Shown one piece after another: positions 8,655-60,901 of a stretch of DNA of 63,627 nt. Origin of the DNA: a virus. Its lineage: Duplodnaviria > Caudoviricetes. The notes beneath the pieces are model-generated. The model saw nothing but the letters and a program-made list of their open reading frames with translations. It made no database searches and was not told the DNA's origin. How positions within the stretch are numbered: position 1 is the first letter of the stretch; each line of letters begins with the position of its first letter. Both the position numbers and the translations under genes were made by a program. The stretch lies in the IMG/VR virus record IMGVR_UViG_3300021341_000078, positions 1-63,627 of that record; one strand, written 5' to 3'.

Positions 8655-9455
8655 ATGTCTAAAAGCAACAAAAAATATCTCAATGTGCTAAAGAACCTAG
8701 CCATCTATAAGTTCTTAACTCTAGAACAGATGGTGCGTTTGGGTGTGGATAACCATAAGACAAACATATCAACTGAGACAGCAACAATGATTAGGGATGG
8801 CCACGCCAATAAGATCTCAAAAAGCGACACCTCTCCAGCAGTTTACTATCTAACAAGAAAGGGTGCTACACGAGCAGAACACATCTTTGATATTACTCCT
8901 AGATACCCTAAAAGGAAAATGGATAAGATGGTAGACGACATGCCTCACAGACTATCAATTGTTGATCTACACATAGAGATATCTAGGTTCAACGTAATAC
9001 AACACTGGAGAGAGTTCGACTACGTAGGTGTGCAACGACAAAAGAACCTAGAGAAAGCAAGCAAGATAAATCTAGGACGAACATCACTAGTACCAGACCT
9101 AATCTTCAAACTCAACACAGACCAAGGACAAAGACTATACCTCGCAGAGGTGGAAAGAACAGAGGGTAAAACGGCAGACAAGTACTATGAAGACAAAGTA
9201 CACAAGTACATCACTTTGCTCAGTAACCAAGCGGTAATAAAAAGGAAGTTCAATGTGTCTCTAATGTATACAGTACTGTTCGTTATAGACGATAGAAAAT
9301 TCATAGAAAAACTAAAGAAAAAAATACTCAAGGATAAGAACGCTGAGAAGCATAACAAAAAGAAGCTCGTAGAGAGCTTCCTATTTAAGCATTTTGATGA
9401 TGATGTTTTCACTTGGACTAACCTAGAAGGAAAGCCTAGGTTGTTGTTCTATTAG
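8655..9455 (+). CDS. Replication-relaxation (Replic_Relax)-like relaxase (standard code)
   Basis: N-terminal wHTH (YKFLTLEQ...YYLTRKG), H motif PHRL, LVPD...AEVER PD-(D/E)xK-type core; adjacent to coupling ATPase. Confidence 0.75.
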   Translation: MSKSNKKYLNVLKNLAIYKFLTLEQMVRLGVDNHKTNISTETATMIRDGHANKISKSDTSPAVYYLTRKGATRAEHIFDITPRYPKRKMDKMVDDMPHRLSIVDLHIEISRFNVIQHWREFDYVGVQRQKNLEKASKINLGRTSLVPDLIFKLNTDQGQRLYLAEVERTEGKTADKYYEDKVHKYITLLSNQAVIKRKFNVSLMYTVLFVIDDRKFIEKLKKKILKDKNAEKHNKKKLVESFLFKHFDDDVFTWTNLEGKPRLLFY

Positions 9456-10500
9456 CCATCATATACTGGATAACTGGAGCGTAGTCTTTCAACTCCTGCT
9501 CGCTAGGCTCTCTAGTAGAGAGAATGGCTTTAGAGATCTGGAACTTCATTCTAGCAGAATACACATACTTAGCGTCTTTCTTATCTATCATAGCATACCT
9601 AGTAAACAAAGCTCGTAGATCCTCATACCTTACATAGAAGAATCCATTGTCGTACGCCTTTGGTCAGTAAGAGTTCATACACTTTATTAGCTGTGTATCG
9701 TCATCGTAACCAACAATAACAAACATGTGCCCACTTCACTTACTAACTTGAGCCACATATTCTGGATGGTTGCGTGTTGCGCTCCGAGAGATCTTATTTG
9801 TCCCTGTAATCACGGTTCTTCATTGAGCCAAAGCAGATTTAAGAGACGTTAAGTCGTTTACCCTGGTATATCATGCACAGATGCCTTTTGTTACGAGAAA
9901 CTTAACTTGATCCTGTAACCAACTACCATCTGTAATAGGGTTTACTCACTTTAGGTAATACTCTTGTTTGTATGCCTCTACGAAATCGTTCCAGTGTTTA
10001 TGTCAGTATAAGAAAGTAGAGCTTCATTCTATAGCGTTCATTATATTACCTGCGTGTGCTCCAGAGAAAGAACCGCAAGCATTACTAGTACTAGGAGTTC
10101 TTTTAACTCATTGGTTTTGTGGAGTCGTCTTAGGTCACAAGTCTACCTTCTTAGGTAGCTTCTGTTCTGATCAAAATAATAGTTCATGTGGTCGATCTCT
10201 ATCGTCTGGCTGGTCGTATGCAGCGTCTTGTTCCTCTCAGGCTAGCTCCTCTCCACTATCTTTTTTTTTTGATTTGGTCATCTCGTGGAATCCTACCGCT
10301 CAAGAACCTACTGCTATACCGTTAGCTATTCTTTGTTCAAGGTCTCACTCTCAAGTGAAGAACCCATAAACCAGACCGAGCAACAATGAAAGGAAGGGTA
10401 AAACTGACTTGTATCTGTCAGGTATCAAAGGCTTTATAATGTCGATAAATCATTTCACAATAGCTGCACCAGCTACTCCTACTGTTAGTTGTGTCTCCAT
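9436..10500 (-). CDS. Holin fused in frame to papain-like C1 cysteine peptidase (candidate endolysin); recoded
   Basis: With UGA=Gly: hydrophobic holin-like N-term ending GSGAVGFHEMTK; then QNQG...ACGSFS, GHMFVIVGYDD, NSYG...NGFFY catalytic motifs; internal ATG at 10281. Confidence 0.8.
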
Positions 10501-10521
10501 AGATATAGGTAGATTGTAAAA

Positions 10522-10770
10522 CTATCTTAACACTAGCGCAAGTACTGCTGTAACCACTCACGCTATCACTATTCAGATTAACCATTTAATAGCGTATTCA
10601 TAGTCTTTACTTGCGTACTTTTTATCTGCTGACTCTATGAAAGAATCGAGCTTATTTTCTAGGGTCACAAAATTATGTTTTACGTCCTTCTCTATTTTAT
10701 CTAACTGTCACTCGATGTATTCCATCTTTGTTTCCAGCTTAACGATTGATAAACTACTCTTCTCTGTCAT
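10522..10770 (-). CDS. XhlA-like membrane lysis protein; recoded
   Basis: Coiled coil followed by KWLIGIVIAGVVTAVLALVL C-terminal TM (G from TGA). Confidence 0.6.
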
Positions 10771-10909
10771 CTGTATAAAGATTTGTCTTAATTATAAAAA
10801 GAATAAACTGAGAATTTTTTCTCATAGCACTTTCTGAGAAAGCACGTCTAGTAGCATCATAAATATTCGCACCGCAATAATTAGTTTTGAGAACCAATTC
10901 ATGTGTAGA

Positions 10910-11326
10910 TTATGATAAACACTTTTGTTTGAACAGCTTTTTTATTTTAGTAGGGAACTTATACCAGTACCACCAACCTCACAACGTAACACCTAGCCGC
11001 ATCGCATAAGCTTTTACCTTGTTTGTTCAGGAAGCTATCAGAGCCTCTCTGAATATCAGATTACTCATAGGAAGTCACAGATCCCTATAGTCTGTGAACA
11101 TCCAATCATGTAAACAAGCAGCGTTGATTGTGCGTGGCTCTACTCTCTGTATGAACATTCCGAACACCATAGGAACAGAACCTCAGTCGAACTCGTATCA
11201 CTCTGGCACTTCTACGCGCTCACCTTTCATGCTATCAGAAAGATACCAGATCAGAGGCTTGGTAGTAACTCGCTTGTTCTTCTTAGGAAGAGGAGTGATA
11301 GAGGTATAAGAAGTAAATTTTGACAT
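10910..11326 (-). CDS. DUF1353-family protein; recoded
   Basis: VPEGYEFDGGSVP...AACLHDWMF with two TGA at Gly positions. Confidence 0.8.
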
Positions 11327-11335
11327 TTTTTATTG

Positions 11336-11608
11336 TTAATCGATGTAAATCTCTCATCAGACAGCAACGATAGCATCTTGTACTGGCTGAGTGAGCTTCG
11401 CTTGCACCAAAAGATTATCCATTTCTATATTCTCAATATAAGTGAAACCATCTTCACTAGTGTACTTATCGAAGTTGTCAGTCAAACGAATAAGCTCGTC
11501 TACCAGCTGGTAGAAAGCGCCTCATTCTAGTACCGTAGTGTACGGTAGCTTTACTGTCGCCATCTGTGGTGGGGACTCTGGAGCCTCAGTAATTACTACT
11601 TCTCTCAT
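11336..11608 (-). CDS. Hypothetical protein; recoded
   Basis: Open from ATG to TAA with TGA read as Gly. Confidence 0.55.
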
Positions 11609-11612
11609 TATG

Positions 11613-12506
11613 CTAGTTTATAGTGTAAAGTATGGTTCGCGTGAAACCAAGTAGGTAAAGATTACTAGAACCGTTACTTGTTGTTCTTCTAATAAGTGGT
11701 GCTATTTTCTGTCATTTGTTCACCGTAATGTCTGCAATATCATCCCAAACGCCGCTATCTACCGTGTCCAAATGAGCCTTATTGTAAATTCATGCGCCTG
11801 TGATGGTATATTGTGCCTCTGGTCATACCAAAGCGTTAGAGACACTAGTTCAACTAGTACTAGTCTGTCTTACAAATTGAACCTTAAAACTCACATCTAT
11901 ATTTTTATCATAGTTCCAAGACAAGAACACCTTCTTGATAGTCAAATCGTAAGGCGCTGTTCGTCCAGCAAACTTATAGTTAGGATTGGGCTGTGTACTT
12001 GTTCAGTAGTTTGTAGATAGATCGTAGAAGATGCCTCTACTACTGTTAGGTCATTGCCATCTACCATTCCTGAGAGTAGCACGTCAACCTGCTGTGAAAG
12101 TATACTCAGTTTCATCTACTGAGTCTATGTCTTGGTTGTCGTCATCTACATCGTATAAGTGTGCTTTCTTGTAACTCATCGTAGGACGTGAATCATCTGC
12201 GTCTTTTTCTGCTTGAGTACCCACTGTAACAGTATCTAATCATAGGTCGGTTAGTCTAGCGTTCACAGCAGTCTCTACGTCCGTACTTGTAGCCTCCTCA
12301 AATCACCACTCGCTAGCTTCCTTCTTTATAAGCTCTTTTATAACTGGCACGTCTCAAGACTCTATCTTGATGTAGCTATGTCAGTCGTTGTCTTGATACC
12401 AGATCTCAGACAACACTAATCATGTGTACCTCCTCATGAGAGCGTCTATGTCTGGGTTGATCTCCTGAGATCCAGTTACTCGCAGCTTCTTATATTTCAA
12501 ATACAT
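11613..12506 (-). CDS. Hypothetical tail-associated protein; recoded
   Basis: 297-aa frame open apart from TGA. Confidence 0.6.
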
Positions 12507-12526
12507 CTTCTATACTCAAAATAAAA

Positions 12527-14266
12527 CTAGTTATATGGCTTACCGTTACCTTGTGCGTAGATTGCTCTCACCTCACATTGAGTAAGCGCCTTTCAGTTGT
12601 ATAGAATGGTGTCATCTATATTCCCATCAAGAGGCGCTCAAGGGTTTGCAGAACCAGATCATCTATATCCCAGTCAAAGGTTTGCTGTAGGGTTATCTAT
12701 TCAAAGCCCAGTTGTAGGGTCATCTATAAAATCACCTCAGTCTATAGAGATTCTCACACGACTATTTCCAGAATCATGAACCGCAGCTACCATATGGAAC
12801 TGTCAAAGTGTAACAGATCATGCAGCAGTGTCTACAAACTCTACTCATCCTGCTGTGGTTCTTATCAAGAATCTTGTCTTGTTTCATGCAGAACTATCAA
12901 ACAGTACCGCCCAAGCAGCGTCTGCAAAAGATGTTGAGTTCTCTTGCGCAAAAATATACTGCTGGATATGACCAGTAGCAGTACTGTCTATCTTAAACCA
13001 AGTAACAACACTGAACGTGTTCACGTCGGTAGTGAATCAGCTATAAGAAACACGATCAGTTGAGCCATTATAGCTATAAGAAGCTGAACCTAGCTTGAAG
13101 TTTACAGTATCGTGTGTCGCTCAACTTATCGTAGCGTCGTTTCCGTTCCCTGTAGCGTCTGGATAGCTACCGTTTGTGTCAGCTTTCCAATATATCGTAG
13201 GTGTTGATACTGTATTTGCTCACAGAGTGAAAGATTGCGTAGCAACACCTATATCATAACTATAACAAGTACCCTCAGCACTAGTCATGTAAGAAGCTAC
13301 GTATAGAGTCTGAGGCGCAGTAACTAAATCAGTAAGTGTTGTTCGCATGATGTACTGACTAAGGTTTACTTCTGTTTGTGAGTAAGCACCCACTGCTCCA
13401 GCTCCTAGACTTACTACCGCCGCTCACGCTGTGGCTGTTGTAGGGTTAGTACTTGTAGCTACTACAAAACCATGATCTGTAATACCAGAACTGTTATCGG
13501 CTACGATAGTACCTGTTAGGTCTGCACAAGCTAGGTTTATGTTACTAGGAGCGTCTAGGGTGAAGTCGAATAGAGGTAGTAGTGTGAATGATAGATTATC
13601 TGAGTATCAGTAACCATTTACATTACGACCAAAAGACCTCACATGTAGAGTTTGCGAAGTACATTGTGAGAACTGACTAAGGTCAATAGTCGTTTGTGTG
13701 AAGTTAGCATTACCTGTGTTACCTTCTATCTCAAGTTTTACATTGGTATCTCAAACACTAGGACTTTCTACCTGACCTATTACCCAACCTCTTTCTATTA
13801 CAGCACTACCGTTATTATTGGTTATATCTCCATCGAATACTGCGTTGTGTCAGGTGATACTAGATACAGCAACATCACCAGCGTTTAATTCTGGTGTAGA
13901 AGGGTGTAGTATCTCTACTTCGTCTGAGTAAGCATATGTAGCACCTCCGTCGTTAGTTGCATAAGCCCTATACCTCCAAGTTTCACCATCATCGATCTGT
14001 CAGCTAGTAATTGTCTGTATGTACGGAGAATCTCCAACCGCACCTGTATAAACAACTTGTGTTACATCAGCATCTCATATTGAGAGGTTAGAACCTGAAG
14101 TATCTTGATACCTAATAATACCCTGCTCAGTAATTGCAGCACCTCAATTATCGATTATGATAGCAGTAAACTTACCTCATCTACCATATGACTCATTTAC
14201 TGTTAGAGTTCACATAGTAGGAGGATTAATAATTCCTCAAGGCTGTACAAATGATAAACTTGGCAT
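12527..14266 (-). CDS. Receptor-binding/tail protein with FN3-like repeats and C-terminal LamG/ConA-like domain; recoded
   Basis: IDNGGAAITEQGI...YRAYATNDGG; C-term LDGNIDDTILYNGKALTQCEVRAIY. Confidence 0.75.
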
Positions 14267-14994
14267 TAGTACGTGTAAGTGAATAAAGAAATTGAAGCTC
14301 AGATACTATTCTCTGGACTACTATTGATTCTGATTGCAAAGTTGAAAGGCAAAGATTGTGTTACGTTGATAGTTTGATTTACTAGCGAACTAGTCCCTTG
14401 TGGTAGAGTGAAGGTGTACAGACTCGTAAACGTTCCTGAGTTAGTTCCTAATTCTATAACCACATCTCCCTGTCATAGAACCCTGCTATCTCATTTAAGA
14501 TAGATAGTACCTGTTTCGATAACTAATTGAGTCTTTCCTGACTCCTGTGCCACAGTAATAAACCTTTCTGATTCAGCTAGCGCTGAGTTACCAAAGTCAG
14601 GCATGACAGCTCAACTATTTAAAGCTCATCACTCAATAGTTATCTGGCTTTCTTCTCTCTTTGGTCAGTTCCCATCTACATACGTAGCATAAACTGTTGT
14701 CCCTACCTTTCTTAATAGAAGTATAGTCACCGAGTTAGGTGTAGGATTAACAGCGCCTTCTGTAACGTAAGATCAAGGAGGTGTGAATGTTCTTGCTCCA
14801 GTAGCGTCCTGTACTAGGATAATCTCTAGGTGATAGCTTTCTAGCCAGTTAGTGATACTTGTGAGTGTACTATCCGCGCTTAGACTTAGAAAGAATTGAC
14901 GATTATCCTTAGCGTTGATACTAAAAGATCAAGCAGTAAGCGTGCTGTATGCTCCATATATAGGGTGCGAGGGTGTTCTTGAGATTATAGTCAT
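14266..14994 (-). CDS. Tail fibre-associated protein; recoded
   Basis: IILVQDATGART motif; frame open with TGA=Gly. Confidence 0.6.
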
Positions 14995-15060
14995 TGCCTA
15001 CTAGCGAAATAAAACCATTATTACTAGGAGAGACATCGCCTCCCCTAGGATATAATAATT

Positions 15061-16479
15061 CTACAATACTTTGTAGATAAGAACTCTCAGTTGATCTGTT
15101 GTTGAACTTGTTACTTGGATAGTATTCACACCATTTCTCACCACATCAGTTATAACCTCTGCTCCTGTAGCAACATCTACTACATTCACAATTACATCTA
15201 GTGTGTTAAGGTTGTGTGTGATAGTTTGAGCGACTGAAGCTGTAGGTGTCCAAGTCTCAGCATACCCATATCCAGCAAGCAAGTTATCAATACTTACTTT
15301 TCTGTTTGCTGTTGCAGAAGCATCGTATACAGCAACGAAGTCGTTAGTACCATCTAGTGTCGTTTCTGCTGTCAGTTCATCGATGTTAAGCGTCAATGTA
15401 ACTGTGTCAGTAGCAGCTACAGCAGTAGTAATACCTTCACCACCTGTTACTGTAAGTGTGTCTCCTAGAGTGATAGTCTCAGTACCTGTATCACCTGCAA
15501 GTGTGAACGTACCAGCAGACCATTGTGGAGCAGTTGCACCAGCATTAACTGTTAGCACTTGTCCAGCTGTACCTATAGCAAGTGTCTGCATATCTGTTCC
15601 GTCTGAGTATACAATATCTCAAGCGTTCAGGGCACCTGAATCCCAATCTATTGTAAACGTATCTCCAGCCAAAGTAACAGTTAGAAGGTCACCACCATTT
15701 ATAGTAAGAGTCTCTCCGTCTAGAATACTTCCTGTGCCTGTGTTACCAGCAGTATTTATAGAAAAAGAAGAGTTGTAAAGAGCATCTGGGTTTACTTTTC
15801 TGATAGCTCCAGCAGAAGCGTCATAGAAAGGGATGAAGTCGTTTGTTCCATCAACAGTTAGCTCGCTTGTAAGGCTATTGATGTCTAGAGTTACAGTAAC
15901 CGTATCAGTTGCGCCTGCTGCTGTTGTGATACCAACACCACCAGCAACAGTAAGTGTATCACCGCTGGTGATCGTCTCAGAACCTGTATCTCCAGCGAAG
16001 TTATAAGTAGCTAGTCCTGCTTGGCTAAACTGTGTAAACGTCAATGCTGTAGTTCCTACAGTGATAGTTCCTGAAGTAGTCAATACAAAACCACCTCCAC
16101 CGTTTGTTGTACCTTCCTCTACGAATGTGAACAATCCAGATGTTACATCTGCATCTACATCCGCGTCGATAGCTCTTGTAGGAGCACCTGTAGCGTTTAC
16201 GGTATAGATACCATTCTCACTTCCTGTTGCTTGATCCTTAATCAAGATTCTATCACCTGTAGCAAGCGTTACGCCGTCTACTGTGTCTCCGTTCTCGAAG
16301 TCAGAAGCTAGTGTTCCTGCTGCTGTCGTAGTAACTCTTACTGAATCCTTAATGTCTAAAGCTTGCTTTACCGCGTCTACATAAGCTTTTGTAGCTGCGT
16401 CTTGTGCGTTAACTGGATCTAACAAGTTAATTATCTTGTTAGAGTTCATGTCCAATTCTTGTAATACTGGTCTTGCCAT
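15061..16479 (-). CDS. Tail fibre/virion structural protein (two track ORFs joined); recoded
   Basis: Fragments in the same frame; TGA at 15619-15621 gives A-G-DIVYSDGT...LAIGTAGQVL; DAATKAYVD and GDRILIKDQ...ENGIY motifs; internal AGDTG-ETIT repeats. Confidence 0.85.
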
Positions 16480-16518
16480 GTGTATAAGTGGAATATAAAA
16501 TATGTGTTTGCGTGGGGT

Positions 16519-16917
16519 TTACCCTATGACTATTACTAATACAGTAACGGTCAAGCTAGATATGAGTATTATAGAGTTGGTGTTTGCTGTGTTTCTATCC
16601 TCATCTACAAACACCTCCTCTCATGTAGCAGTATCGTAAACATTAACTACTACATCATTGGTTGTTAGGTTATGTGTTATTGTTTGTGGCGTATTTGCTG
16701 TTAGTGTTACTGTCTCAGTATACTTATTCAGAGGATTCGTAGTTCAAACAGTCCTTCTAAAGTTGCTAGGATACTCAGTAAGCAAATGCTCTGCTTCCTC
16801 TCTTGTTAGATCATAAGTATCACCTATCGATGAGTAGGTAACTTCTATGTCTCAATTACTAAGTCTGTACTTTACCGTTCCTGTTCATAGGGGAGATATG
16901 TATTCTACTAAGACCAT
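16519..16917 (-). CDS. Small virion protein sharing a domain with the 15061 gene C-terminus; recoded
   Basis: QTITHNLTTNDVVVNVYDTATGEEV vs QTITHNLNTLDVIVNVVDVATGAEV. Confidence 0.7.
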
Positions 16918-16998
16918 TTGTCCACTTGAGATATAAAATGTTGTTTATTTCACTTTTGCTTCAGTAGATATACGGGTTTTCGCGCCAGTAACCGTGGA

Positions 16999-19900
16999 CT
17001 ACACAATAGGCACTTCTGCTAAGAAGCTGTAACCTAATGCCGCACCTCAGTTCATTGCAAACCAAGTACTACCGACTGGTTCCATAGTGTTCTCACCATC
17101 TGCGATATACATCATAAGATTATTTGCATCTTGTGCATGCACAGTTCATGGGTTGCGCTCTACTCCGCTCAAGTGTGCTTGTGCTGATCCAAGAACAGTT
17201 GGTAAAGCTCCCCCATCTCCTACAGTCCATACCGTAGAAGTATCAATGCTAAACCCTGTTGGAAGTGGGAACAAGTAATTACCACTACCTATCGAACCTG
17301 CCGTACTTTGATTGTAAGTATATCTTATAAACAATGACTTCCCTACGACCTTGTAGTAAGCAGTGTCGGTCACAACAGTTCCTTTTATAGGTGATGTAGT
17401 AGCTCCTCCAATAGTCAGTGGTCAGTATGACGTTCGTTCTATGTATGGTACGTCTGTAGTATTTATGACTGTTTTTTGTGGTTTGATACCATAAACTTTC
17501 ACATCTACTGCCGTAACTTCTGTACCTGTCATGAACATTTCAAGCGTATTACCTGCAATATCCATGTTTGTAGCAATAGTCAGAGTAGTTGTGAAATTAT
17601 CAATCCAAGGTACACGAGAACCGTCAGCTCGATTTTCAGTACTAGTTTTCGCAGTACTACGCACAACCAAAGATCATGATGTAGTAATTAGCTCAAACTC
17701 AACAGACTCGTAATTATTTACAAGATTACCCCACGTATCAGAAATAGTAAGTGTTTGACCGTTCGTAAGACCTGTTCCAGATCATAATAAGACTTTATTG
17801 TCATCAACTGAAAGAGCCTCTGGCATCACTACTGTTGATGTAGGTTGTTGTGCCACATCTAATATAATTATATAGTCCTCAGACGTTCTATTCTGGTCTG
17901 CACGTATGAAGAACTCCAGTTCGTCTCACACAACAAGATTGAGAACCTCAAAACCATTCAGCTCTCCATCGATTTCATTTGTGTCCGTTTCTTGACCTAT
18001 AACCACGAATGTTCCTCAGTTCAATGAATATCATATTTCCGAAGGAAAAGCATCCTGGTTATTTGCTCAACTTTCGTTCACCTGAGAGTGATTTGCTTGC
18101 ATATGAATACTATACAATCCACTCTTTTTTACTGTCAGAGTACTGCCTGTACGTATAGTATTAGAGTCATACTCTCTTGCTACTTGATCTACTCAATCTA
18201 CTAGATCAGAGAGGTCTATTCATAGTGGAGTAGTTCAAGAGAATGTCATATCTGCTGATACTCATCTAGTAAAGAATCTATCCAAACTTTGTGGTGTAAC
18301 CATTCCAGCAAGCGACTTTTCTTCATAGGTGTCAACAATAGTATATAGCTGATATGCTCTATTATCTGGACGCGTTTCAACACTTCATCATACAATACTA
18401 TGGCTATGGTTTCCTGATGAGCTTGTTGTGCCGTTTGTGCTGCCGTGATGTGCTTGTACTCCAGTAAAGTCGTTTGCTGCTTGTCTTGTTCAACTGTGTG
18501 TATTAAATGTATGCGTATGTGCTCAAGCAGTACTTGTGCTCATACCGTTAGGAGCTGTTGCATCCGCTTGGAATACTCATTCAGTAGATGCATTTCATCA
18601 AAGGTTACGAAGGAACATACCTTCAACATCTGAACCGAATACGATATCATTACCAACAATAAATTCAGGATACATAGCCGCCCATACAGGATAATCTATA
18701 GCTCCGTTTGTTACTGTTCAAGGCGTAACAGCTAGGTATCATTCTACGGTAGATCAGGATTTAGCATAGAAAAACTCTCAAACACGAGAGCTTACTTGAC
18801 CTACTCAAGATCAAACCTGATTAATAACCCAACCTCATGCAACTTCATCCGCTCTGAACTGTGCTCATACACTATAGTTAGAGAACAAGAAAGAACCGTC
18901 TAAGACCCCATTTAAAGTTTCACCTGACTGTACCGCTAGTGTAGCCGTGTTTGCAACGTCAATGTTTGTGAATAGTCTAACTCCTCACAGATTGGTAGAA
19001 GCATCTAGAGTCTCTAAGAATATTCATGCACTAGCATCTACCTTTGTAGCCTCTAGACTTGCTCCACTCTCTAAAGTATCTAGCGAAAGAACAAGACTAG
19101 ATGATCATACTCTCACAAACTCCAATACTCTGTAGACAACAGCACCAGTGCTAGGAGTCAGTGCTACTGTTCATAGTGCTATGTTATCCGTTTTCAAATA
19201 CTCTCCGCCAAATACAATATTCCTAGCTGCTGTATCTGTATTAGAAATTACAACTCTTACTTTTTCACCATGCTCTAAGTTTGAAGTAGATGAGTTATTG
19301 AAGTTTATGTCTCCTGTAGATGTGTTATCGAAGATGAGAACAAAGTCTACGTTCTGATCGAAGTCAGGAGTTATATCTACTCATGTAGAAACCGTAGCAG
19401 AAAAAGAAGGTGTGTCAATATTACTAATTTGTGACCAGTTTGCTGCATCCGTAGAAAAGGCGGTACTAGAAGTGTGTGCGTTTATACATTTATATATTCT
19501 GTTACTCTCAGTAATTACATCTCACAATACATAATCTATACTTCCACCCCGATTAGGCAATGCGTTAGCCACATTTGGTGTAGTTCTTTTGATCGTAAGG
19601 TTATTCTTTGAGAGAGTAGCGGTGTCTGTACCGTCTGTAATAGATACAAAGTCTTTATTGATCTGGCTAGTCTCTGTTCCGTTCGTGAAGCTAGCCTCAC
19701 TTGAGTCTATAGTTGTAGTATTTGTACCGTTACTTATAGAAGCAGTAGTCTTACCATAGTTTGCTGTATTTGTACCGTCACTAAATCAAGAAGTTGTTAC
19801 GCTGTCTGTCTTTGTGTCTGTACCATCAGTCATGCTAATTTGACCAGCGTTTGTATAGCTTACATTGTTGCTAGCCATATCGTGTGTCCTTGCTCCTGTC

Positions 19901-47791: not shown

Positions 47792-47799
47792 TATATTTG
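47792..47799 (+). promoter_or_regulatory. Bacteroidota -7 element TATATTTG; further copies at 48302-48309 (+) and 61206-61213 (-)
   Basis: TAnnTTTG consensus upstream of standard-code genes. Confidence 0.6.
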
Positions 47800-47902
47800 A
47801 ACGACCTAATAAATCATTCTCCTATATCCCTGCTCGAACTCGCTTACCAAATTGACCCAATTCGCGCCTAACGTAGGTGCAGGTATTTAAAACATTGTAG
47901 GG

Positions 47903-48259: not shown

Positions 48260-48357
48260 AACTAATTGTTGCAGACGGTTGACAATACACAATAAAAGTT
48301 TTATATTTGTTGTGTTGTCCTCTTGATTCCATGAACTGATGCAAAACTATAACGCTA

Positions 48358-48702: not shown

Positions 48703-48869
48703 TCAGTTATAGTAGTCGCGTTAAACAACTTGCCAGTTGTAACAGTGGGTATACAGTGGGAGTCCATTATTTGGGTTCAAGGGTTGCTCGCAAGAGTAAG
48801 GAGCTGTTACAGAAAACCTCATAGGCTTGGCAAGTTGTCCTATGGGGTTTTTATTTTATCTAATAAAAC

Positions 48870-49574: not shown

Positions 49575-49576
49575 AA

Positions 49577-50407: not shown

Positions 50408-50847
50408 CCACATGGTAACACGACAACAGCTAGACGACATGGAAACAGTAGCTAAAGGTATGACACTGATACATCATAGGGAGTGAGACCCCAAGAGTGT
50501 TATCAAGAACGTGCTTAGAGTTATTTCGGAGCTACACTATGCGGACATTGTAACACTGGGTAATGAAGAACTAGAGGACGTACTACTAGACTTCCAGAAC
50601 AAACTACTGGACATAGAAAACAAGTATTTAGCTCCTAAGCAATGACTATGCAATACAAGTGATACGAGATCTTTGTAGAGTGAGGAGTATACAAAGCTGA
50701 GAACTACGCTACATGACATGTTATAATAAACCACATCAACTCAGGTAAAACATCGAACATGTACGGAACAAAGAAGAAGATTACAACTTTTGACCAGATG
50801 AAAAGAGCTATAGATTTTTACTTACGTAATAGCCACTAACTATATAC

Positions 50848-51891: not shown

Positions 51892-52026
51892 ATTTTAGAA
51901 CTACTCGGTAGTAACTGGTAGCGTAGGTACTACGCGAACCGAGCTTAAGCTCAACGCCTGTGGAGAGTGTAGGTTACGAACTCTATGAAGCAGGAAGCCG
52001 TCGGACTTTAGTCCTTGGTAGTTCAC
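51892..52026 (+). ncRNA. Putative TnpB omega/reRNA scaffold and IS right end
   Basis: ACGCCTGTGGAGAG...ACTCTATGAAGCAGGAAGCC, hairpin GGACTTTAGTCC, terminal GTTCAC. Confidence 0.65.
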
Positions 52027-52993
52027 ATCTTAAACAGAGTTACTAATGACGTTACAAGAAATATTAGACTTGTGGGTAGAGAAGGGGGCTGTGTATGAGT
52101 GAGTTTCTTTTGATCAAGCGCATTTGTTCTGAAAGCACATACTTCTATATGAAGACGTTGGACCTTTTAACGAAGAATACATCTCACTCTCTCTAAACGA
52201 TATACTCTACTGAGATTCCAACTTTTGGAAAGCGTTGTTTCCCCTTGACTGGCAGTATGAAACGCCAGAATATGATAGTAGGTACGTAGACCCTGTGTTT
52301 AGGGATTGAGGAGTGATTTATGTTCTAGATAACGTAAGTGACGCACCGAGAGTGCGAAGATGGAACTTTCTAAAAATGCAAAGCACTCTCCACAAAGATA
52401 AAGTCGCTTACCTATCTGATTTACTTTCTAAATAATAACGATGCCTAAAGGAAAAATAGATGGAACAAGGTTTTCTAATTATGCAATAACAGAGAAAGAG
52501 GTAAGCTTGCTATACAAGGAGTGGGTGAAAAGACTTTCTAAAGAACTAGATAAGCGCAATGAGTTCTGATTAACATTCACAGAAACACCTCCTACGGTAA
52601 AAAAGATTATAGACGGTGTTAAAAAAATTGAAGATGATTTACTTTCTAACAATACAGATGACTAAGAAACGAATACACCCTAATTGACGAACAGCACACT
52701 ATAGCACAGGAATTAGCTATACAGATTGAGTCTATATAATAAGAGACAGAGAAGGAAGATACTGGTGATGCTTTTATGAGGAACAGATAATAATAGACTT
52801 CTGATTTGAGCAAGAAGATGATAAGTATGATAAATGTGCTTACGAACTTATAGCAAACCAAGTGGTTAGAATGTTTGACAAACCCTCAATAGAACAAATC
52901 CTCAGAAAATACTTCCCAGAAAATTCTTAGCTTATTCTTTGCAAAATCTAACAACATACACACGATACAGGTGTTTATCACCTACCAAACACA

Positions 52994-53491
52994 ATGGAAG
53001 AGTTAATATCCCACGTAGATGAGAAAGATGAGCTTATAGATTACAGACCTAGATCAGAGTTTTACAAGAGTGAGATGATACACAGGACGGTATGAGTCTT
53101 GCTGTTCAACTCACTGTGACAGATGCTTATCCAGAAAAGATCTGAGAACAAAAAAGAGTCTCCTTGATTACGGTCCTGCTCAGTATCGTGAGGCGTTGGA
53201 ATAGAAGATTATGAGACCGCTGCAAAGAGAGAGACGAAAGAAGAGCTGGGTATAGACGTAGAAGTAAGAAAGTTGTTCAAGTACAAAAGAAACAGGAAAT
53301 ACTCTAACCCTTACTTCAAAGAAGTTTACGAAGCTACACACGACTGACCACTAACAATCCAAGAAGAAGAGATAGCTGAAATACTACGAGCAGACGTTGA
53401 ACGGATAGAGAAAGATATACAAGAGAACCCACACAAGTATACAGAGTGATTCAAAAAGCTTTTACAGATTTACTTACAAGATGGACGTTAA
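52994..53491 (+). CDS. NUDIX hydrolase (IDI-like); recoded
   Basis: IHRTV..LLFNSLGQMLIQKRS...PG(TGA)LW(CGG)S...AAKRETKEELGI. Confidence 0.85.
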
Positions 53492-53870
53492 AAAGATTAA
53501 TGAAGAAATAAAGAAGTTATGATCAACAGATAATATTTCTGACTGACACCACACATTCAAGGAGCTATACGAACATAGACACGCACTGCTTATATCCTTA
53601 ATCAACAACACTAATCGAGACTGGATAAAAAGCTACATACACTACGACTATGAGATGTGGAAATGATGGTTTATAGTTCAGGGAATGTGTCCTACACAGA
53701 ATGACCAGTTCAACCAAATATCCTACCATTTACCAAACATGTATCGAGACAAAGTACGCTGTAAGGAAATAGCGAAAGCAGAGCGACGAGATTGACACAC
53801 AGCAGAGGATGTTGTATTCAGACTTATGCAACACAACACTAAGCCCCTTGGAGTTTTAGGCAACTTTTAG
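53481..53870 (+). CDS. WDGH-motif phage protein; recoded
   Basis: SDGHHTFKELYEHR...QISYHLP...W(CGA)DG(TGA)HT. Confidence 0.8.
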
Positions 53871-53883
53871 ATCTCTACCTACA

Positions 53884-54246
53884 ATGATCAGAATAGTTCT
53901 ACAGTGAAGACCACTATCCACTCAACACATCTACTGACAACGCGGTAGGATTAGATATATGAAGAAAGAAGCAAAACTCCTGAAAGCATCATATATCGAA
54001 CAAGCGAGGTCACAATACGCATGAAAGTGTCTCGAAACACCGCTTTCCGTAGAGATCAAAATCTATTTCTGAGACAGAAGGAAGCGTGACTGGGATAATT
54101 ATCACAAGCTGACGATGGATGCCTTAGAATGAATTTTATACAAGGACGATAGCCAAATTCAGATTGCACTCGTTACGAAAGCGTACGACAAGGAAAACCC
54201 ATGCACTGTTTTAGACTTTATAGAGCTATGTGACATAGGAAAATAA
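53884..54246 (+). CDS. rusA: RusA-like Holliday junction resolvase; recoded
   Basis: RKRDWDNYHKLTMDALEGILYKDDSQI. Confidence 0.85.
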
Positions 54247-54518
54247 AGCTGAATACACAGAAGATAAAATACTGATGTAACTTCTGTGAGGAGTGTGGGT
54301 GTAAGAAGCATCGACTACCGTTCCAGATCCACCACGTAGTCTACAGATCTGAGGCTTGACGACACAAGAACATAAACCACCCAGATAACCTATTGATAGT
54401 ATGTGCGCCTTGCCACCAGAAGATACACTCTAACAAGAAGGCGTATCAAGCAAAACGAGTAAAAAAGAGAGACTTATGGAGAGTGTTCCCAGATGTGTTA
54501 CATGACAAGTACAAGTAG
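54228..54518 (+). CDS. HNH endonuclease; recoded
   Basis: CEECG...IHHV...NLLIVCAPCHQKIH. Confidence 0.75.
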
Positions 54519-54543
54519 AAAGTTTTATTACCTAAACTTTTTT

Positions 54544-54972
54544 ATGAAAGAGAGGCGAGTTCCAGTCACTTGATATGAGTGAAGTTATGAAGTGAGCAAT
54601 TTATGAAGAGTTAGATCCCTAGATAGATATTCTACTTCACACCAACGCGATTCTCTAGGAAATTTCTACACTAGACGCGTTAAACAAACTTGAAGGATGC
54701 TAAAGCAACAAGTCAACAACTGAGGTTATGCAAGAGTAAGACTTATGAAAAATGGGAAGTGAAAATATACTATGGTGCATAGAATAGTATACTTCTCATT
54801 CAATAAAGTCCCTTTAGCTAAAAACAACAACATTGGTATATGTTGTATTTGCCACAAAGACGACAACAGACTTAACAATAGCATTAATAACCTTTTCTAC
54901 GGTACGTACAGAGATAATGTTAGAGACATGATGAAAAAATGAAGAGAAAACTTCTTTTGAAGAAACAATTAG
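54544..54972 (+). CDS. NUMOD4-HNH homing endonuclease; recoded
   Basis: ERW(CGA)VPVTGYEGSYEVSNLGRVRS...VHR...CHKDDNRLNN..NNL. Confidence 0.88.
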
Positions 54973-55712
54973 GTGACGAGAGAGGTCGCTAAACAAGCGG
55001 GCATTGAACCAAAAGTTAGACCCTAAAAGCAAAAAAGACTAGCGTGGAATATATCTGTGTGTATAATGATAACATATGAGTTGGTCTATAACAGATGGTG
55101 TGGGAAACAGGGCTGATTGACCCCTGAAAAAGTAAACATCCTAGATCAGTGTTTACGTCTACAATATAATCGTCACTATGGCAACAATAAGCAGACCCAC
55201 ATCATCTCCTATAGATCAGCTCAACCCTTTATCCTTTACGTGTGTTGTTATGCCTCTACCCAAACAAGCTAAAAAGGCTCTCAGTGAGTTGAGAGCGAAG
55301 ATTGCAGGAGCAAGTTATTGTAATGCTGGATGGATTCAGAGAGAGAGATGGAGAATGAGAAGAACAACCCCAAGAACCAAAGATGTACATGTAGAGCTAC
55401 AAGAGGTGAATACAAGCCTCTACCAGAACCTATCTACAAACGACTACCTTTATTCCCTTATAGAGCACTAAGATGACTGACAGAAATCAGCTAATCGGTG
55501 AAGCGTATGAGAAGATAACAAAGGACTTGTGAACTATGATAGACTTCCTAGGTGATGGGATCTACCAGATAGTACTAGATATACTTGAATGAAAGAAAAC
55601 TATCGAGCTATTAGACCTGCTTGGAAAGTAATTACGTGAGCTAGACACCTCCTTAAACTGTCCTTAGCCTAGGCACGCTTTACACTGCCCTTTTATACTT
55701 ACCATTACTACA

Positions 55713-56240
55713 ATGACAGATTCATTTTTGCCTGAAAACTATTCAGAGCCGTCAAACAGTGACTTCTTGAAGCTAGAGGCTGGTACTACAAAGATTAGAT
55801 TCTTGCAATCTCCAGTTATCTCTTGGGAGCTTTGGGAAGATAAAGAAGACGGAACAGAGTGACGCAAAGTTGTTAGAGGAAAGAAAGAGGAAGGACAACC
55901 TATTCCACCTAGCTCTAAGCTAGTATGGACTTGTATCGTTTGGAACCATAACGACCAACGTATGCAGGTATGGAGCGTAGGACAAAAGACTATCAGAGAT
56001 CAGATCGTAAGCATTAGTAGAGACGCAGACTTTGGAGACCCACGTAACTTTGACATTAAGATCAAGAAGGAAGGGGAGAAGATGAAAACTACTTACACTA
56101 TCAACCCGCTACCTCCTACAGAACTAGGAGAGGAAGCAAAGAACACAATCATGCAAACACAGGTAAATATAGACGCATACTTTGAGGGAGAGAATCCTTT
56201 CTGAACAGGGAGTGACGACGACTCTGACGTTCCTTTTTAA
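55713..56240 (+). CDS. Probable single-stranded DNA-binding protein; recoded
   Basis: FLKL...KIRFL...DIKIKKEG...TTY; acidic tail SDDDSDVPF is reached only if TGA 56202 is read through. Confidence 0.65.
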
Positions 56241-57150
56241 TCACTAGGGGCTTCGTGCCCCTTTTATTTTTGAAATATACTTATGTATAAGTTGATAATC
56301 GACTCTCTAAAAAAGATGGAAAAGGATGTAATCAAAGACACAACAATCAGCATCTTAGACGAGTACTTGTACCAATACAACCTTTTGATAAACGAAAAGA
56401 TAGATCTTATTAAAGAATACTCCTTAAATAAATGAGACTATGAGGACAAAGTGAGAAAAAAAGTGAGCCAACTGCTAAGTGATAGGATCGTAAAGCACAA
56501 GACAAAAGCGGAAACCATAGCAGAAGAGGAGCATAAAGAACTATGAGAAAAAATAAGAAGAGACAGTATAGTCATAGAAGAGATAGACACATTTTCTAGG
56601 AAGACATTAAATAACTACCATCATGGGAAGTCTAAATTAAAGAGTGACTTCGATATGGATAAGCAGGTAAACAATATAGCTAGATTTCAAGAATGACACT
56701 AATTGCTTTACATCTTACGTATTATACAATGTGAATTATTATTGCACTATGAATCGTTGCGTTGATCTTTTTATCGTTTAAGCTCTCGTGTAGCAGTTGC
56801 AATACACAAGCGATCAACCCACAACAACCAAAGATTACTCCAGCAAAGACCACTGTTTTCACTAAGTGATGAAGTAACCTAAAAGCACCTAAGAAAAGAA
56901 AGACCCCTAAGACTGACAAGCTGAATGAGAACAGAGCACAAATCGAATTACAGATACTAGCAGGTTGGACCAATGAAGATATCGCAAAGTACTACTGAGT
57001 AGGTAGTTCGACTGTTCAGAGATGGAAAGTTGCTAGAGGGATAAAGAGACTATCTAAAAGACAAATAGAGAAGGGGAAAGAGATGCTAGGGGAGAGATAT
57101 GATGTAAAGAAGTTCCGTAAACAAGCTAAAGAAGCAGGATTAATGCAGAC

Positions 57151-57178
57151 TTGACAAATGTAATTCCAGAGTTATAAT
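57151..57178 (+). promoter_or_regulatory. Consensus sigma70 promoter TTGACA-N16-TATAAT
   Basis: Perfect -35 and -10 hexamers. Confidence 0.75.
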
Positions 57179-57620
57179 ATAGATACTTTACTTCTAACAC
57201 ATACAAAAATGCCTACACGATTCAAGTACCTGACTGTCTTTTGTCTATGATTAGCTCTGTGAGTTTGGAGCATGAGTCTTGTATCAGCAGACTACAGCCT
57301 TATCCCTACTCCTGAACAAGCTGACTTTGTTTACTGACTAGAGATGGAGTACAGAAACACTATCCAACAAACTATTGCTCAAGCTAGATACTACCAAGAG
57401 TATCAAGACAACTGCGAGCTAGAGGAGGCGTTCTTTACGTTCGATAGAAAGAAGATTACTTGTGAGGAGATAGAAGATCACTTCCGTTCTAAGTACTTCG
57501 AGATCGCAAACCTTGCTTATAAGCTAGATGGGTATTGTGATGAGTACTTTGGGAGATCTGGTAAAGCATGTAGCATGTATGTAGACATGTATAGAAGCTA
57601 GTTTTATTCTTACAAACAAA

Positions 57621-58397
57621 ATGAGAAAGTATACACCGCATATAATTACAGTACTAATACTAGTACTTATCGTATGAACAATACTGAATCGACCAACACA
57701 AGAAAATAAATCACAGCTAGAGAAGCTAGTAGAAGAAAGAGCTATCCTAACAGAACAAATACAACAGATAGAAGCAACAGAACAAGAGATACAGAAAGCT
57801 ATTGAACAGGAGTGTAAGAAGATGGATATAGAATGTGCAGTAGATAGCATACCAGAGAAAGTAGAGCAAGTTGTTGAAGCTAACGGAAAGGTAGAGGTAG
57901 AGGAGCAAGAACAGTCACCCACCAAGGAAGAGAAAGAGCTGATGGAGCAGATATGCAAACTAGGAACAAAGAATGGTAAAACAACTATCCTATGTGATAA
58001 CTGGGAGCTGTACTACCAACTAACTGAAATAAGTGCCAACAAGTGAGTTCCATTCAAACTTATGTTAGGTATTACTATGGCAGAAAGCCACATAGGTACA
58101 AACCGAGCACCAAAAGAAGAGTGCTCAAAGTCTAAGAACTGGGCATGACTAAAAGGAGCAAAGAAAGACGATGGATCTGTTATATGGTATACAGTAGCAG
58201 GCAAAGGTATAGAGGGGTGTTACTTGTTTAAGTTCGACTTAGTTACAGACTTCCGAAGCCATTTTGCAAACACACTACTAACCTATCAGAACGCTTGTTG
58301 ACGAGATCCAGCATGTATCTCGGTAAGATATGTGGGAGGACAAGGAACAAAGAAGAGATGGGTACAAGCAGTTAATTTATTCTATACTAATGAGTAA
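57621..58397 (+). CDS. Membrane-anchored coiled-coil protein with lysozyme/glucosaminidase-like domain; recoded
   Basis: N-terminal TM; GVPFKLMLGITMAESHIG...NWAGLK. Confidence 0.55.
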
Positions 58398-59006
58398 TGT
58401 GACAGCTAGTTTTTTGATCTAAAGAGGCAATAGAAAAGCTAATCGAGAGCTTAAAGAAAACAAGTCTCTCCTTAAGTAGACACTACTGTACTTGTGACCA
58501 CTGTGATTTAAATGGTCTTATAGAACAAGCCTCTTGCTCCTCGTGCGACACTATACTTTACGGTTCTCGGTGAAGTCCAGAACATAGAGAGGCAGAAATC
58601 GTACTAAAAGAGATAATGGAAGAGTCAGATAAGGTGCGTGAAAAGTGATGAGCATTGCTTTGTAAAAAATGTGATTCACAGATAACTCGTTTAGATTGGT
58701 CAGAAAAGGAAAGTCTTCTAAGATCCTACATAGGCGATATAGAGGAAAACAAAATTACTCTTTTTTTAGATACTAACAACAAGTAATGAAGAAGTTTCTA
58801 CTAATACGATTGCCAATCCTTTTGTGATCGTTTCTTGGAGTAATGCTTGCTTTAAAGTTTGAGCCAGTTAGACGGTCTACCTGAGAGAAGATTTGATGGA
58901 GTGTGTATGAAAGAGAAAGTGGAAAATTTGTGTGACATGCTATATATAAGTGACCTCATAAGGGTTTTCACTGACCAAAGGAAGATTTAGATAGTAATAA
59001 TAAGTA

Positions 59007-59360
59007 ATGATAGACCCACAGAAAACGATAGACCGAAACCTTGCTTTTGGAAATAAACAACAGTTTGATACAGGGAAGTATGATTGATACCTAGATTACA
59101 GCATGATGAGAGAGGAGATACGTGAGTTCTTGCTAGCCTCAGATAGTGACGATAAGGTAGAAATGGTAGATGCCTGTATAGATGTGATATTTGTAGCTCT
59201 ATGAACGCTACATAAGCTATGATTAGATGCAGAGTCGATCACTAGAGCGTATGATGAGGTGTGTAGGTCAAACGATAGCAAGATCGGAGCTAAGAAGAGA
59301 GATGGGAAAGTAACTAAGGGAGAAAACTACTCACCACCTAACCTAAATTTTGTTCTTTAA
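59007..59360 (+). CDS. MazG-like NTP pyrophosphohydrolase; recoded
   Basis: EEIRE...VEMVDACIDVIFVALG...EVCRSNDSK...DGKVTKGENY. Confidence 0.85.
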
Positions 59361-60901
59361 ATATACAAGATGTCTAGATTCAAACTTAACACACCTAGAG
59401 AAGTACACGAGAACCCAAACAGCAAGTTCCAAGCTGGTCTAAATAAGCTCAGAGAGCTTTGAGCAGAAGAATTATTACAAACCTTCACTGAGATGCGTGA
59501 GAACCAGAGAGACGCTTGAACACGAACTGAGACAGCTGATACTGCTGCTGGTCTGATCTACGATAAAATAGAGGAGGAAAAGAGCAAGAGAAAGTAGTGG
59601 CTGTTTCCATTTTGGAACATACCACAGCAACCCTTTTACCTTAGTATTACAGATGGAATTACTTACTTGATACGTATTAGCAAATTGCTTCATTTTTTCT
59701 CCACTTATTGGCTACGATAGCCCTTACTCTGAGTGGCGTTATTGTCCTGAGTTTGATGCTCCTTGCGTAGAGGAAACATTCTATAGGTTTAGAGACTGAG
59801 TATATGACTGTAGAACAGACGGTGAACGACTAGCGCATTGTGCCGATTCAGAATAACCTTATTTATTTAGTATATGGGGATGAAGAAAGTATACAGATGA
59901 TGTGAAATAGAGATAACAAGAGAATATGACGAAATCTACCACTCTATCTTTTCGAAAGACTGACGAGAGCTTGCTAGTTGATTCGGTCGGTGAGATACCA
60001 TACGGTCTGTTCGATGACCATGTCAACTTAGAGTTGATTCATTCTTAGATGAATGCTGATGAGACTTTGAAAAATATGAGGAGATGCGATACGGAAAACC
60101 ATTTTAGTTTGCAGAACAATCATTGTCTAAAGTAGATTTATCCTACCCTCACACATGGAAAAGCTCCCAACCCCACAACCTAAAAAGAGACTATTCAAGA
60201 AGCAAGAGTATCAACAGAGGCTTGCCGAAGTATTGAAGTGAAGCTGTCGGCAATGCGGTAGACTATCTAACAACCTAACAGGAGGACTATGTCCTGACTG
60301 CTTATAATACTAACCACAAACAATGTCCTATAAAAGAAAGACAGTAAACGTAACACACTTCTTTTGGTTCAACTGAAAGATACATAGAGTAGAGGACGCT
60401 TATAACTTATGACATAAAAGACAAAAGCCTATAATCACATGGCTAGAAGAGTATAACAAGGCAACACAAGAGTACTCAGGCATAGGAGATAAAAGAAAGC
60501 GCGAAAAGATTAGAAAACTAGAAAGTAAAATACGGTGATACCTGGGAAACTAGTTTTACTTTACATATAGAAATGAAACCAGACTTTACACGAGACGAAG
60601 CAATTACAGGAATGAGGAATCGGTTTATAGTATGAGTAGCAGTAGGTATACTTATATCTACGCTGGCTAGTTTTATTGTTTAATGTATAGACATGAGTAC
60701 CGTATGAGAAGAAATACTTGTAGAACTAGAAAGATGTAAAATGTTACTTTCTATGTATCAAGAAATATGAGTAGAAGGAGTTTTTTGAGCAACACTTATA
60801 TCAGAGTGAATTAATAAAGCAGAAAAGGCGATTAGTGAATGAAATATAGTAGAAATAATCAAGTCGTATGAGGAACTAAAGTCCTTTGAGTAGATAAAAA
60901 G

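Follow-up and report, generated by a model that had tools for sequence, protein, structure and literature searches.

The prophages Garnet (in Prevotella) and Topaz (in Oscillospiraceae) are TAG-recoded, have stop-free integrases and reside in standard-code hosts, as described in the Borges preprint (10.1101/2021.08.26.457843). A similar arrangement is found for the element studied here, which fills most of the virus record IMGVR_UViG_3300021341_000078 (Duplodnaviria; Caudoviricetes), 63,627 bases long and referred to below as the window: a tRNA of the host and an integrase mark the two ends of the prophage, the flanks appear to be in standard code, and the lytic genes are unreadable in the code of the host. 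In Garnet and Topaz, according to the same source, the recoding is TAG=Gln, and a phage-borne suppressor tRNA or a release-factor change is the proposed one-host switch. In the window element, by contrast, the readings are UGA=Gly and, for the sense codons CGA and (less firmly) CGG, Trp; no decoding kit is found, and the early genes are recoded as well. This pair of reassignments, UGA=Gly plus CGA/CGG=Trp, is the dialect that is predicted for Absconditabacteria in the work of Shulgina and Eddy 2021 (PMC8629427).

Other described systems share some of these properties. Liu et al. 2023 (PMC10746230) report code-25 prophages in code-25 hosts as well as UGA-free phages shared with bacteria outside the candidate phyla radiation (CPR), and the Strigamonas preprint (10.1101/2024.03.08.584096) describes a code-25 phage with a tRNA-Gly(UCA) as well as prophages that have no tRNAs and would use those of the host. 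As in the code-25 phages of Gracilibacteria/Absconditabacteria, UGA is read as Gly in most genes (83% of the open reading frames (ORFs) here, against ~90% as given in 10.1101/2021.08.26.457843), and a relative with 48% terminase identity occurs in a Gracilibacteria metagenome-assembled genome (MAG). Unlike the reported code-25 prophages, which lie in code-25 chromosomes, the element has an integrase, inserts and, apparently, flanks in standard code and with Bacteroidota affinities. The UGA-free "code 11-compatible" phages of PMC10746230 also have a gene set that avoids UGA in frame and as stop and is readable either way; in that report they are targeted by spacers of Gracilibacteria and of non-CPR bacteria, and Bacteroidetes spacers matched 5 of 9 co-targeted Gracilibacteria phages. 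The genomes of those phages are, as reported, UGA-free as a whole, whereas here this concerns about 14 of 84 ORFs; all others follow code 25 strictly, CGA being read as Trp, and the element is seen in an integrated state. Among deposited phages, the nearest large terminases are from tailed phages of Bacteroidota such as Flavobacterium phage 11b (40% identity) and Cellulophaga phage phi10:1 (39%), in both cases over 98% of the protein; unlike this phage, they use the standard code. No title or abstract was found that describes a UGA=Gly plus CGA=Trp prophage within standard-code DNA; supplementary tables may hold cases.

The recoded block is best described as the lytic part of a ~59-kb temperate tailed phage in a tRNA-Ala(GGC) gene. 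The explanation favoured here, with about half of our confidence behind it, is that of a translationally locked prophage: its lytic genes would depend on a cell to which the dialect is native, and in the standard-code carrier they would be unreadable.

Results

The two gene sets of the window

The sequence analysed is the virus record only, in which 4.5 kb of chromosomal flank is visible. The first letters of the window are a stop codon and the last ones a start codon, which we take to be the trimming habit of provirus callers, the window being excised from a longer contig. The initial annotation had placed the recoded region at 9436-60894; the limits are corrected here to 9436 to ~61021 for the recoded block, which is broken by TGA-free genes at 34748-37610 and 39066-40136, and to ~4614 to just past 63627 for the mobile element. 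The features on which the argument depends are the following:

2287-3642 (+), flavin amine oxidase, standard code, outside the element (Pfam PF01593, E 1.7e-80)
4537-4611 (-), tRNA-Ala(GGC), the integration target (ARAGORN, Rfam)
4571-4613, attachment core of 43 bp, equal to the 5' half of the tRNA plus 2 nt; left junction (contig branching)
4762-6786 (-), coiled-coil protein of 674 aa, TGA-free, no Pfam family
6792-8549 (+), HerA/TraG-type coupling ATPase, TGA-free (Pfam DUF87, T4SS-DNA_transf, TraG-D_C)
8565-9455 (+), Replic_Relax family protein, TGA-free (Pfam PF13814); convergent with the first recoded ORF, with which it shares its last 20 bp
9436-34499 (-), recoded late module (ORF calls with TGA as sense, Pfam)
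34748-37610 (+), TGA-free insert between portal and terminase, on the opposite strand (Pfam, PHROGs), with genes for a transglutaminase-core protein, a 262-aa protein with a weak Rz-like spanin match and a PqiA-like membrane protein
37633-38970 (-), large terminase subunit, recoded, with 15 TGA and 5 CGA/CGG codons (Pfam Terminase_3)
39066-40136 (+), TGA-free gene, 356 aa, on the opposite strand, no family by Pfam or PHROGs
40170-44826 (-), small recoded ORFs, with a weak small-terminase-like match at 41782-42192
44978-60553 (+), recoded early/replication module: C5 methylase, DUF6291 protein, DnaB-like helicase, TnpB, NUDIX, WDGH, RusA, HNH endonucleases and a MazG-like protein
50848-51891 (+), TnpB, recoded, 8 TGA (Pfam)
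61215-62335, TGA-free pair: a 177-aa ORF (-) and a RadC-like JAB protein (+) (Pfam)
62371-63627 (-), tyrosine integrase with Arm-DNA-bind_5, TGA-free, at the inferred right end (Pfam)

Dialect of the recoded genes

When TGA is read as a sense codon, the number of ORFs of at least 150 aa increases from 23 (table 11) to 49. Reading TAG or TAA as Gln gives 36 and 30 such ORFs, respectively, and both were rejected, as they open no long frames in the recoded block. At least one in-frame TGA is present in 70 of the 84 element ORFs of at least 60 aa (83%), and in 30 large ORFs TGA accounts for 262 of the 10,178 codons (2.57%) and TGG for 0.66%. The reading TGA=Trp was rejected too, because it would mean a Trp content of about 3.2% and because TGA aligns with Gly. 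This is seen when the C5 methylase is aligned to M.HhaI, where TGA codons fall on glycines of motifs I and IV, and in the terminase, which was tested codon by column against the best 120 of 1848 homologues: for 12 of the 15 TGA columns, the most frequent residue is G.

The terminase also bears on the CGA and CGG codons. At the column of CGA277, W is found in 112 of the 120 homologues, the column of CGG57 has W in 59, G in 26 and Y in 23, and that of CGG175 has W in 52 and H in 43; CGA280 lies in an L/F/W column and one more CGA in a variable column. The invariant R columns of this protein are written CGT, AGA and AGG. In TnpB, the codons CGA64 and CGA280 are both matched by W in a solved nuclease of the TnpB type (top match 9yyg, an AI-designed RNA-guided nuclease), and CGA132 of the NUDIX protein aligns with W of YfcD. 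Further CGA/CGG codons are seen by eye at positions where the WDGH, NUMOD4 and methylase motifs presumably have W. On these alignments, the 70 recoded ORFs, which cover replication, packaging, head, tail and lysis, need UGA=Gly and CGA=Trp, and CGG is probably read as Trp also. CGA, CGG and TGG occur 30, 16 and 66 times per 10,000 codons in the recoded ORFs, a usage comparable to that of the most advanced Absconditabacteria genome as given in PMC8629427. The replication genes are recoded like the late genes.

Apparent ordinary code in the UGA-free genes and the flank

TGA is absent from the 2747 codons of seven ORFs outside the recoded block (two of the host and five at the element ends) and from the 1286 codons of four internal ORFs (0/4033 in total). 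In the amine oxidase of the flank, CGA442 lies in a column with R in 117 of 119 homologues, a second CGA lies in a K/R column, and all five TGG codons fall on invariant W. The integrase (62371-63627), with no TGA in 418 codons, has CGA149 in a column with R in 7 of 12 homologues, and its conserved W columns (47, 257, 276 and 284) are all written TGG. For the Replic_Relax protein, R is found in 27 and K in 4 of 56 homologues at the column of CGA158, and the sole conserved W (in 54 of the 56) is again TGG; in the 674-aa protein the three CGA/CGG codons lie, by eye, in charged heptad contexts. As a stop codon, TGA is used in none of 12 UGA-free genes, which is not significant when compared with 25 of 198 in low-GC Bacteroidota loci. 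The flank shows no in-frame TGA, with CGA read as Arg, and within the 4.5 kb visible no gene ends in TGA. The integrase, RadC, the coupling-ATPase/Replic_Relax pair and the four inserted genes are written like the chromosomal flank, with no UGA and with CGA at Arg columns. Shine-Dalgarno motifs are nearly absent; found before 2 of the 60 recoded genes and 3 of the 11 that are UGA-free, they were dropped as a host marker, being uninformative.

Absence of a decoding kit

The sole tRNA that ARAGORN finds in the window is the tRNA-Ala(GGC) at 4537-4611 (-), outside the recoded block. Rfam, at E<=1, recovers it with 66.5 bits and gives no further tRNA-like match across the window. The relaxed ARAGORN search (-ps) still reports one gene, and at -ps80 there are 32 calls, which are the tRNA-Ala and 31 poor ones, and the anticodons tca, tcg and ccg are not among them; those folds that were inspected are without normal tRNA loops. 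Families of release factors or aminoacyl-tRNA synthetases are not detected by Pfam, run on 60 recoded and 9 TGA-free element ORFs (and on the amine oxidase of the flank), or by PHROGs, run on 10 TGA-free ORFs, with about 15 ORFs under roughly 100 aa outside these family scans. This is in agreement with the initial annotation, which had noticed by eye no tRNA other than Ala(GGC) and no synthetase or release-factor gene; for the element, its proposed search for UCA, UCG or CCG tRNAs now gives none in the window. A 320-bp ORF-free gap at 42893-43213, among the small recoded genes, contains two poor tRNA-like folds that are called only at very permissive ARAGORN settings, and Rfam finds nothing there.

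The absence is real, but it is less odd than had been supposed, as TGA suppressors are found in only 35% of the code-4 phage genomes, and suppressors generally in 35-40%, according to the Borges preprint (10.1101/2021.08.26.457843). The picture of a stop-recoded phage without a kit of its own in surrounding DNA of standard code likewise holds, except that the code is that of the Absconditabacteria, which reassigns TGA to Gly and also CGA/CGG to Trp and so goes beyond plain stop recoding. The early genes are recoded as had been stated, the number of TGA codons being 7 in the C5 methylase, 5 in the DUF6291 protein, 12 in the DnaB-like helicase, 8 in TnpB and 5 in RusA. A scheme in which standard-code early genes install a suppressor for the late genes therefore has nothing to start from, and the earlier conclusion that the recoding does not serve late-gene timing within one host is upheld. 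The conflict over the sense codons that would arise in a standard-code cell is not one that a suppressor tRNA could settle by itself. Since the dialect is that of the Absconditabacteria, a natural supplier of the kit does exist, namely a cell of that clade.

Limits and probable integration of the element

Contigs of four seawater metagenome runs (X1, X2, X3 and one more) were compared with positions 1-20000 of the window in a k=31 graph. In X1, a 5563-base contig ends at 4600 and a 27,774-base contig starts at 4584, while a 31,393-base contig ends on 4571-4600 and a 12,705-base contig starts on 4584-4613; the loose ends at 4571-4613 recur in X2 and X3. This branching implies that the 43-bp core, the 5' half of the tRNA-Ala, occurs twice. 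One copy lies inside the window, where no convincing direct repeats are found as attachment sites. The two long contigs, which are separated by a break in a GAA-type repeat at 32.3 kb, add up to 59,137 bases after subtraction of one overlap, compared with 59,044 window bases from 4584 to the end, so that the second attachment copy would be next to the integrase, about 60 bp beyond the integrase start and the window end, as judged from the lengths of the run contigs only. The evidence for integration is the join in the window itself.

The depths of flank and element are near 1:1 in the four runs (16.9/14.9, ~6.9/6, ~6.1/5.2 and ~5.3/4.9). Single contigs span the code boundary at 9436-9455 in X1 and X2, and the UGA-free genes of the 674-aa protein, the ATPase and Replic_Relax share one X1 contig (4584 to beyond 20000) with recoded genes. 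From these data we infer an element of ~59 kb, reaching from ~4614 to just past 63627, to which the 674-aa protein, the coupling ATPase, Replic_Relax, RadC and the integrase belong. When the 43-mer of the attachment core is searched in IMG/VR, no related element is obtained.

The carrier

The best named homologues of the amine oxidase are mostly from Bacteroidota (~70% identity), and the identical protein is on record on 6 contigs, the longest of 103,730 bases. A homologue is found in 9 of 401 sampled Bacteroidota, with up to 60% identity. There is no real one in the 204 genomes sampled from the order of the Gracilibacteria MAG with the 48% terminase relative, for which the 12 matches concern the short cofactor motif only. 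The tRNA-Ala has its best match, 93.5% over 77 nt (93% over the 75-nt tRNA), among 201 genomes of the order of a Saprospiraceae-labelled MAG, three of which also give 98% over 58 nt; the best identity is 88% among 151 Bacteroidota, 87% among 401 genomes sampled from the class of the Gracilibacteria MAG and 79-80% in the order of this MAG. Release factor 2 (RF2) scores above the cut-off in 4 of the 5 genomes with the most similar tRNA-Ala. In the Bacteroidota genomes with the most similar tRNA, the flank is matched by the tRNA alone, and the integrase is not found in those five genomes. For the integrase there are only 13 homologues at E<=1e-10, and the named ones are Bacteroidota MAG proteins (46% and 43% identity); its alignment gives no relatives in the metagenome collection or in IMG/VR. 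Taken together, flank and attachment tRNA point to a standard-code, Bacteroidota-like genome rather than a code-25 cell as the carrier seen here, and the sequence data point to a marine Bacteroidota.

Relatives of the phage genes

Among species genomes, the two best terminase matches are in "Candidatus Gracilibacteria" MAGs (48% and 43% identity), followed by many standard-code Bacteroidota prophages at ~40%. The terminase locus of the 48% MAG (L002) is recoded (15.6 TGA per 1000 codons) in plain code 25, with CGA read as Arg, and its genome holds both a tRNA(UCA) and a tRNA(UCG). In the order of this MAG, the RF2 cut-off is reached in 0 of 41 genomes, and the genes of release factor 1 (RF1) have 0-17 in-frame TGA codons. 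Of the 120 public terminase homologues (P0001-P0120), 33 have W at three or more conserved glycine columns, which indicates that they are deposited as table-4 translations of what would be UGA=Gly phages. The five closest (P0001-P0004 and P0012) have R at Trp or aromatic columns and would therefore share the CGA/CGG reading.

The terminase alignment gives 80 loci in IMG/VR, of which three pass the TGA filter and one (L219) is clearly recoded, in plain code 25 with CGA=Arg; no tRNA is found in the 80 loci. When the terminase alone is used, 1 standard-code locus is obtained from IMG/VR, and the coupling ATPase gives no related element there. TGA-recoded phage-like DNA (29 and 26 TGA per 1000 codons) is also seen on contigs L007 and L011, which are binned as a Gammaproteobacteria MAG and a Woesearchaeota MAG and which are probably mis-binned.

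Other features of the window

The element has the HK97-type morphogenesis set, with terminase, portal, prohead protease and tape measure recognized by Pfam and a capsid protein without family match. The remaining features are:

1-483 (-), chromosomal-side ORF of 160 aa with a threonine run, TGA-free; run contigs branch in its repeat at 434-474
3800-4051, small helix-turn-helix ORF (ORF listing)
4175-4400 (-), apparent C-terminal remnant of a tyrosine recombinase, beside the 3' side of the tRNA (translation read by eye)
from 9436 (-), first recoded ORF of the late module, 15 TGA
within 9436-34499 (-), DUF1353 protein, recoded
16999-20475 (-), long tail-fibre-like ORFs, 40 TGA
23759-26713 (-), tape measure, recoded (Pfam)
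within the late module at 9436-34499 (-), connector, recoded
30643-31884 (-), capsid-sized ORF, no family match
31847-33094 (-), S78 prohead protease, recoded (Pfam)
33174-34499 (-), portal, recoded (Pfam)
43797-44219 (+), Mrr_cat nuclease, recoded

The flank at 484-4536 is gene-poor under either code and contains the recombinase remnant and the small helix-turn-helix ORF, which suggests an older decayed island at the same tRNA-Ala. The prohead protease ORF (31847-33094) has a long acidic tail, generated by GAA-type repeats (32127-32386), where the run contigs (k=31) appear to break. The TnpB, of the IS605 family, is written in the dialect of the phage (8 TGA, CGA at W columns) and is followed by a sub-threshold RAGATH-18 match (Rfam, 31.3 bits against a cut-off of 44.9; region 50848-51996). 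Upstream of many recoded start codons, at a distance of 19-21 nt, a TTTA/TTTTA motif is observed: TTTA occurs at -24 to -12 in 40 of 71 ORFs, in 17 of 39 in the related locus L002, but in no more than 8-16% when Bacteroidota prophages or the host loci of the two Gracilibacteria MAGs are examined. It is mostly missing from the UGA-free genes, and it may be a phage-specific expression signal.

Discussion

Two independent reassignments that are shared with one clade, together with the absence of a kit and the recoding of the early genes, speak for translation of the lytic genes in a cell with this dialect. The standard-code integrase, the Bacteroidota-like attachment tRNA and the compact standard-code inserts suggest that the element also lives in a standard-code cell. 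In the translationally locked prophage, the productive cell would supply a ready-made kit, consisting of tRNA-Gly(UCA), a Trp-charged tRNA(UCG) and the lack of RF2, as has been proposed for tRNA-less prophages of the clade, and the element's own integrase, being in standard code, would have placed a copy in a standard-code, Bacteroidota-like chromosome. In this carrier only the UGA-free genes would be readable, and the lytic programme would be locked at translation, so that the difference in code would correspond to two kinds of cellular setting and not to an early and a late phase of the same infection. In a more far-reaching version the phage would have two cell types in its life cycle, lysogenizing a standard-code marine Bacteroidota by means of bilingual UGA-free genes (integrase, inserted genes, coupling ATPase and relaxase-like protein) and running its replication and virion genes only in an Absconditabacterales cell, for example an epibiont on that Bacteroidota, the code then being the switch between a silent reservoir and a productive host; this more specific proposal is regarded as improbable.

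Several observations weigh against the locked-prophage explanation. The order of the 48% MAG uses plain code 25, with CGA=Arg in locus L002, which means that the CGA=Trp clade is sampled only via the class draw of 401 genomes; no genome of this clade with a close phage relative is found, the best terminase in species genomes being at 48%, and all 12 full-length terminase relatives among deposited phages are from Bacteroidota phages. Within the dialect, CGG=Trp is less firm than CGA=Trp, because CGG36 of TnpB aligns with R of the solved nuclease 9yyg. In the UGA-free genes, CGA61 and CGG273 of the integrase and CGA103 and CGA172 of Replic_Relax lie in variable or hydrophobic columns and are uninformative. 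The assignment of the carrier rests on a flank of 4.5 kb that resembles an old island, gene-poor and with an integrase remnant, and one member of the homologue cluster of the amine oxidase is labelled Gemmatimonadota. The contig graph alone would also be compatible with an unoccupied site and a free circle beside it, and X1 and X2 are possibly the source samples of the window, so that the bridging contigs are not fully independent.

The exact match of the phage code to the Absconditabacteria dialect can also be accommodated if the carrier is itself an Absconditabacterales cell, in which an ordinary code-25 prophage uses the host tRNA pool and the UGA-free stretches are recent, unadapted imports from Bacteroidota. 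For the published prophages of the clade, which have no tRNAs, dependence on the tRNA pool of the host is stated (10.1101/2024.03.08.584096), the left flank resembles a decayed island, and RF1 genes of code-25 genomes can have 0 TGA, so that UGA-poor genes do exist there; it also fits that no UGA-free gene ends in TGA and all would terminate properly in such a cell, a count that is not significant against the 25 of 198 in low-GC Bacteroidota loci. The target tRNA-Ala, however, is nearer to Bacteroidota (93.5%) than to any of 605 genomes in the class of the Gracilibacteria MAG (at most 87%), and 0 TGA in 4033 codons compares with 2.57% in the phage genes. The inserting integrase is in standard code with relatives labelled Bacteroidota, CGA occurs on conserved Arg columns in three separate UGA-free genes and would be read as Trp in a code-25 cell of this clade, and the UGA-free genes form four or more distinct blocks, closely packed between recoded ones. 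With this balance, a code-25 carrier is regarded as improbable, although it is to be taken seriously. Another candidate explanation is a misjoin, at the shared tRNA-like 43-mer or elsewhere, of code-25 phage DNA to a Bacteroidota genome. In its favour, the contig graph (k=31) can be entered and left by two paths each at 4571-4613 and is ambiguous there, and an exact 50-mer search for the parent contig gives 0 matches in the metagenome collection (from which its own records are possibly absent). The ambiguity is nevertheless confined to the tRNA join: the UGA-free genes of the 674-aa protein, the ATPase and Replic_Relax are on one X1 contig with recoded genes, 9436-9455 is crossed in X2 too, and the depths of flank and element co-vary over four runs. 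As the 43-bp identity between element and tRNA has the look of an attachment site, and as six code boundaries would all need to be artefacts, an assembly error is considered very unlikely.

In a further alternative the phage multiplies in the standard-code Bacteroidota itself, and the code is switched on induction by a kit acting in trans, the source of which would be a second prophage, a helper phage, a plasmid or some factor not yet recognised. The carrier-adapted look of the integrase, attachment site and inserted genes would be explained in this way, as would a terminase lineage that is otherwise that of Bacteroidota phages; most recoded phage genomes in the Borges preprint (10.1101/2021.08.26.457843) are also without detectable suppressor, and a phage with tRNA-Gly(UCA) is described in 10.1101/2024.03.08.584096. 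Such a switch is nonetheless hard to reconcile with CGA/CGG=Trp, which clashes with CGA=Arg of the carrier and of the element's own UGA-free genes and would corrupt both. With UGA at 2.6% of codons and up to 40 per gene, near-complete suppression against RF2 would be required, there is no early standard-code gene set to drive the change, and an independent origin of the exact Absconditabacteria pair of reassignments is unlikely. A kit in trans is therefore thought to be less probable than a code-25 carrier, and the locked prophage is retained as the preferred explanation.

The recoded prophages described so far from standard-code hosts have only one stop codon reassigned, and a tRNA of the phage can plausibly flip the code within one cell. 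This one-cell switch model does not fit the present element, because the conflict extends to sense codons (CGA stands for Arg in the carrier but for Trp in the phage), a kit is absent and recoding includes the early genes. On the practical side, W in place of glycine in 33 of the 120 closest public terminase homologues indicates that such proteins are translated with table 4. Were the carrier Absconditabacterales, the window would give a measure of the unadapted standard-code DNA that can be tolerated in such a genome. Should a Bacteroidota carrier be confirmed, the window would represent the long-term residence of a genome in a cell that is unable to read it, and the movement of phages between CPR episymbionts and their bacteria would become testable.

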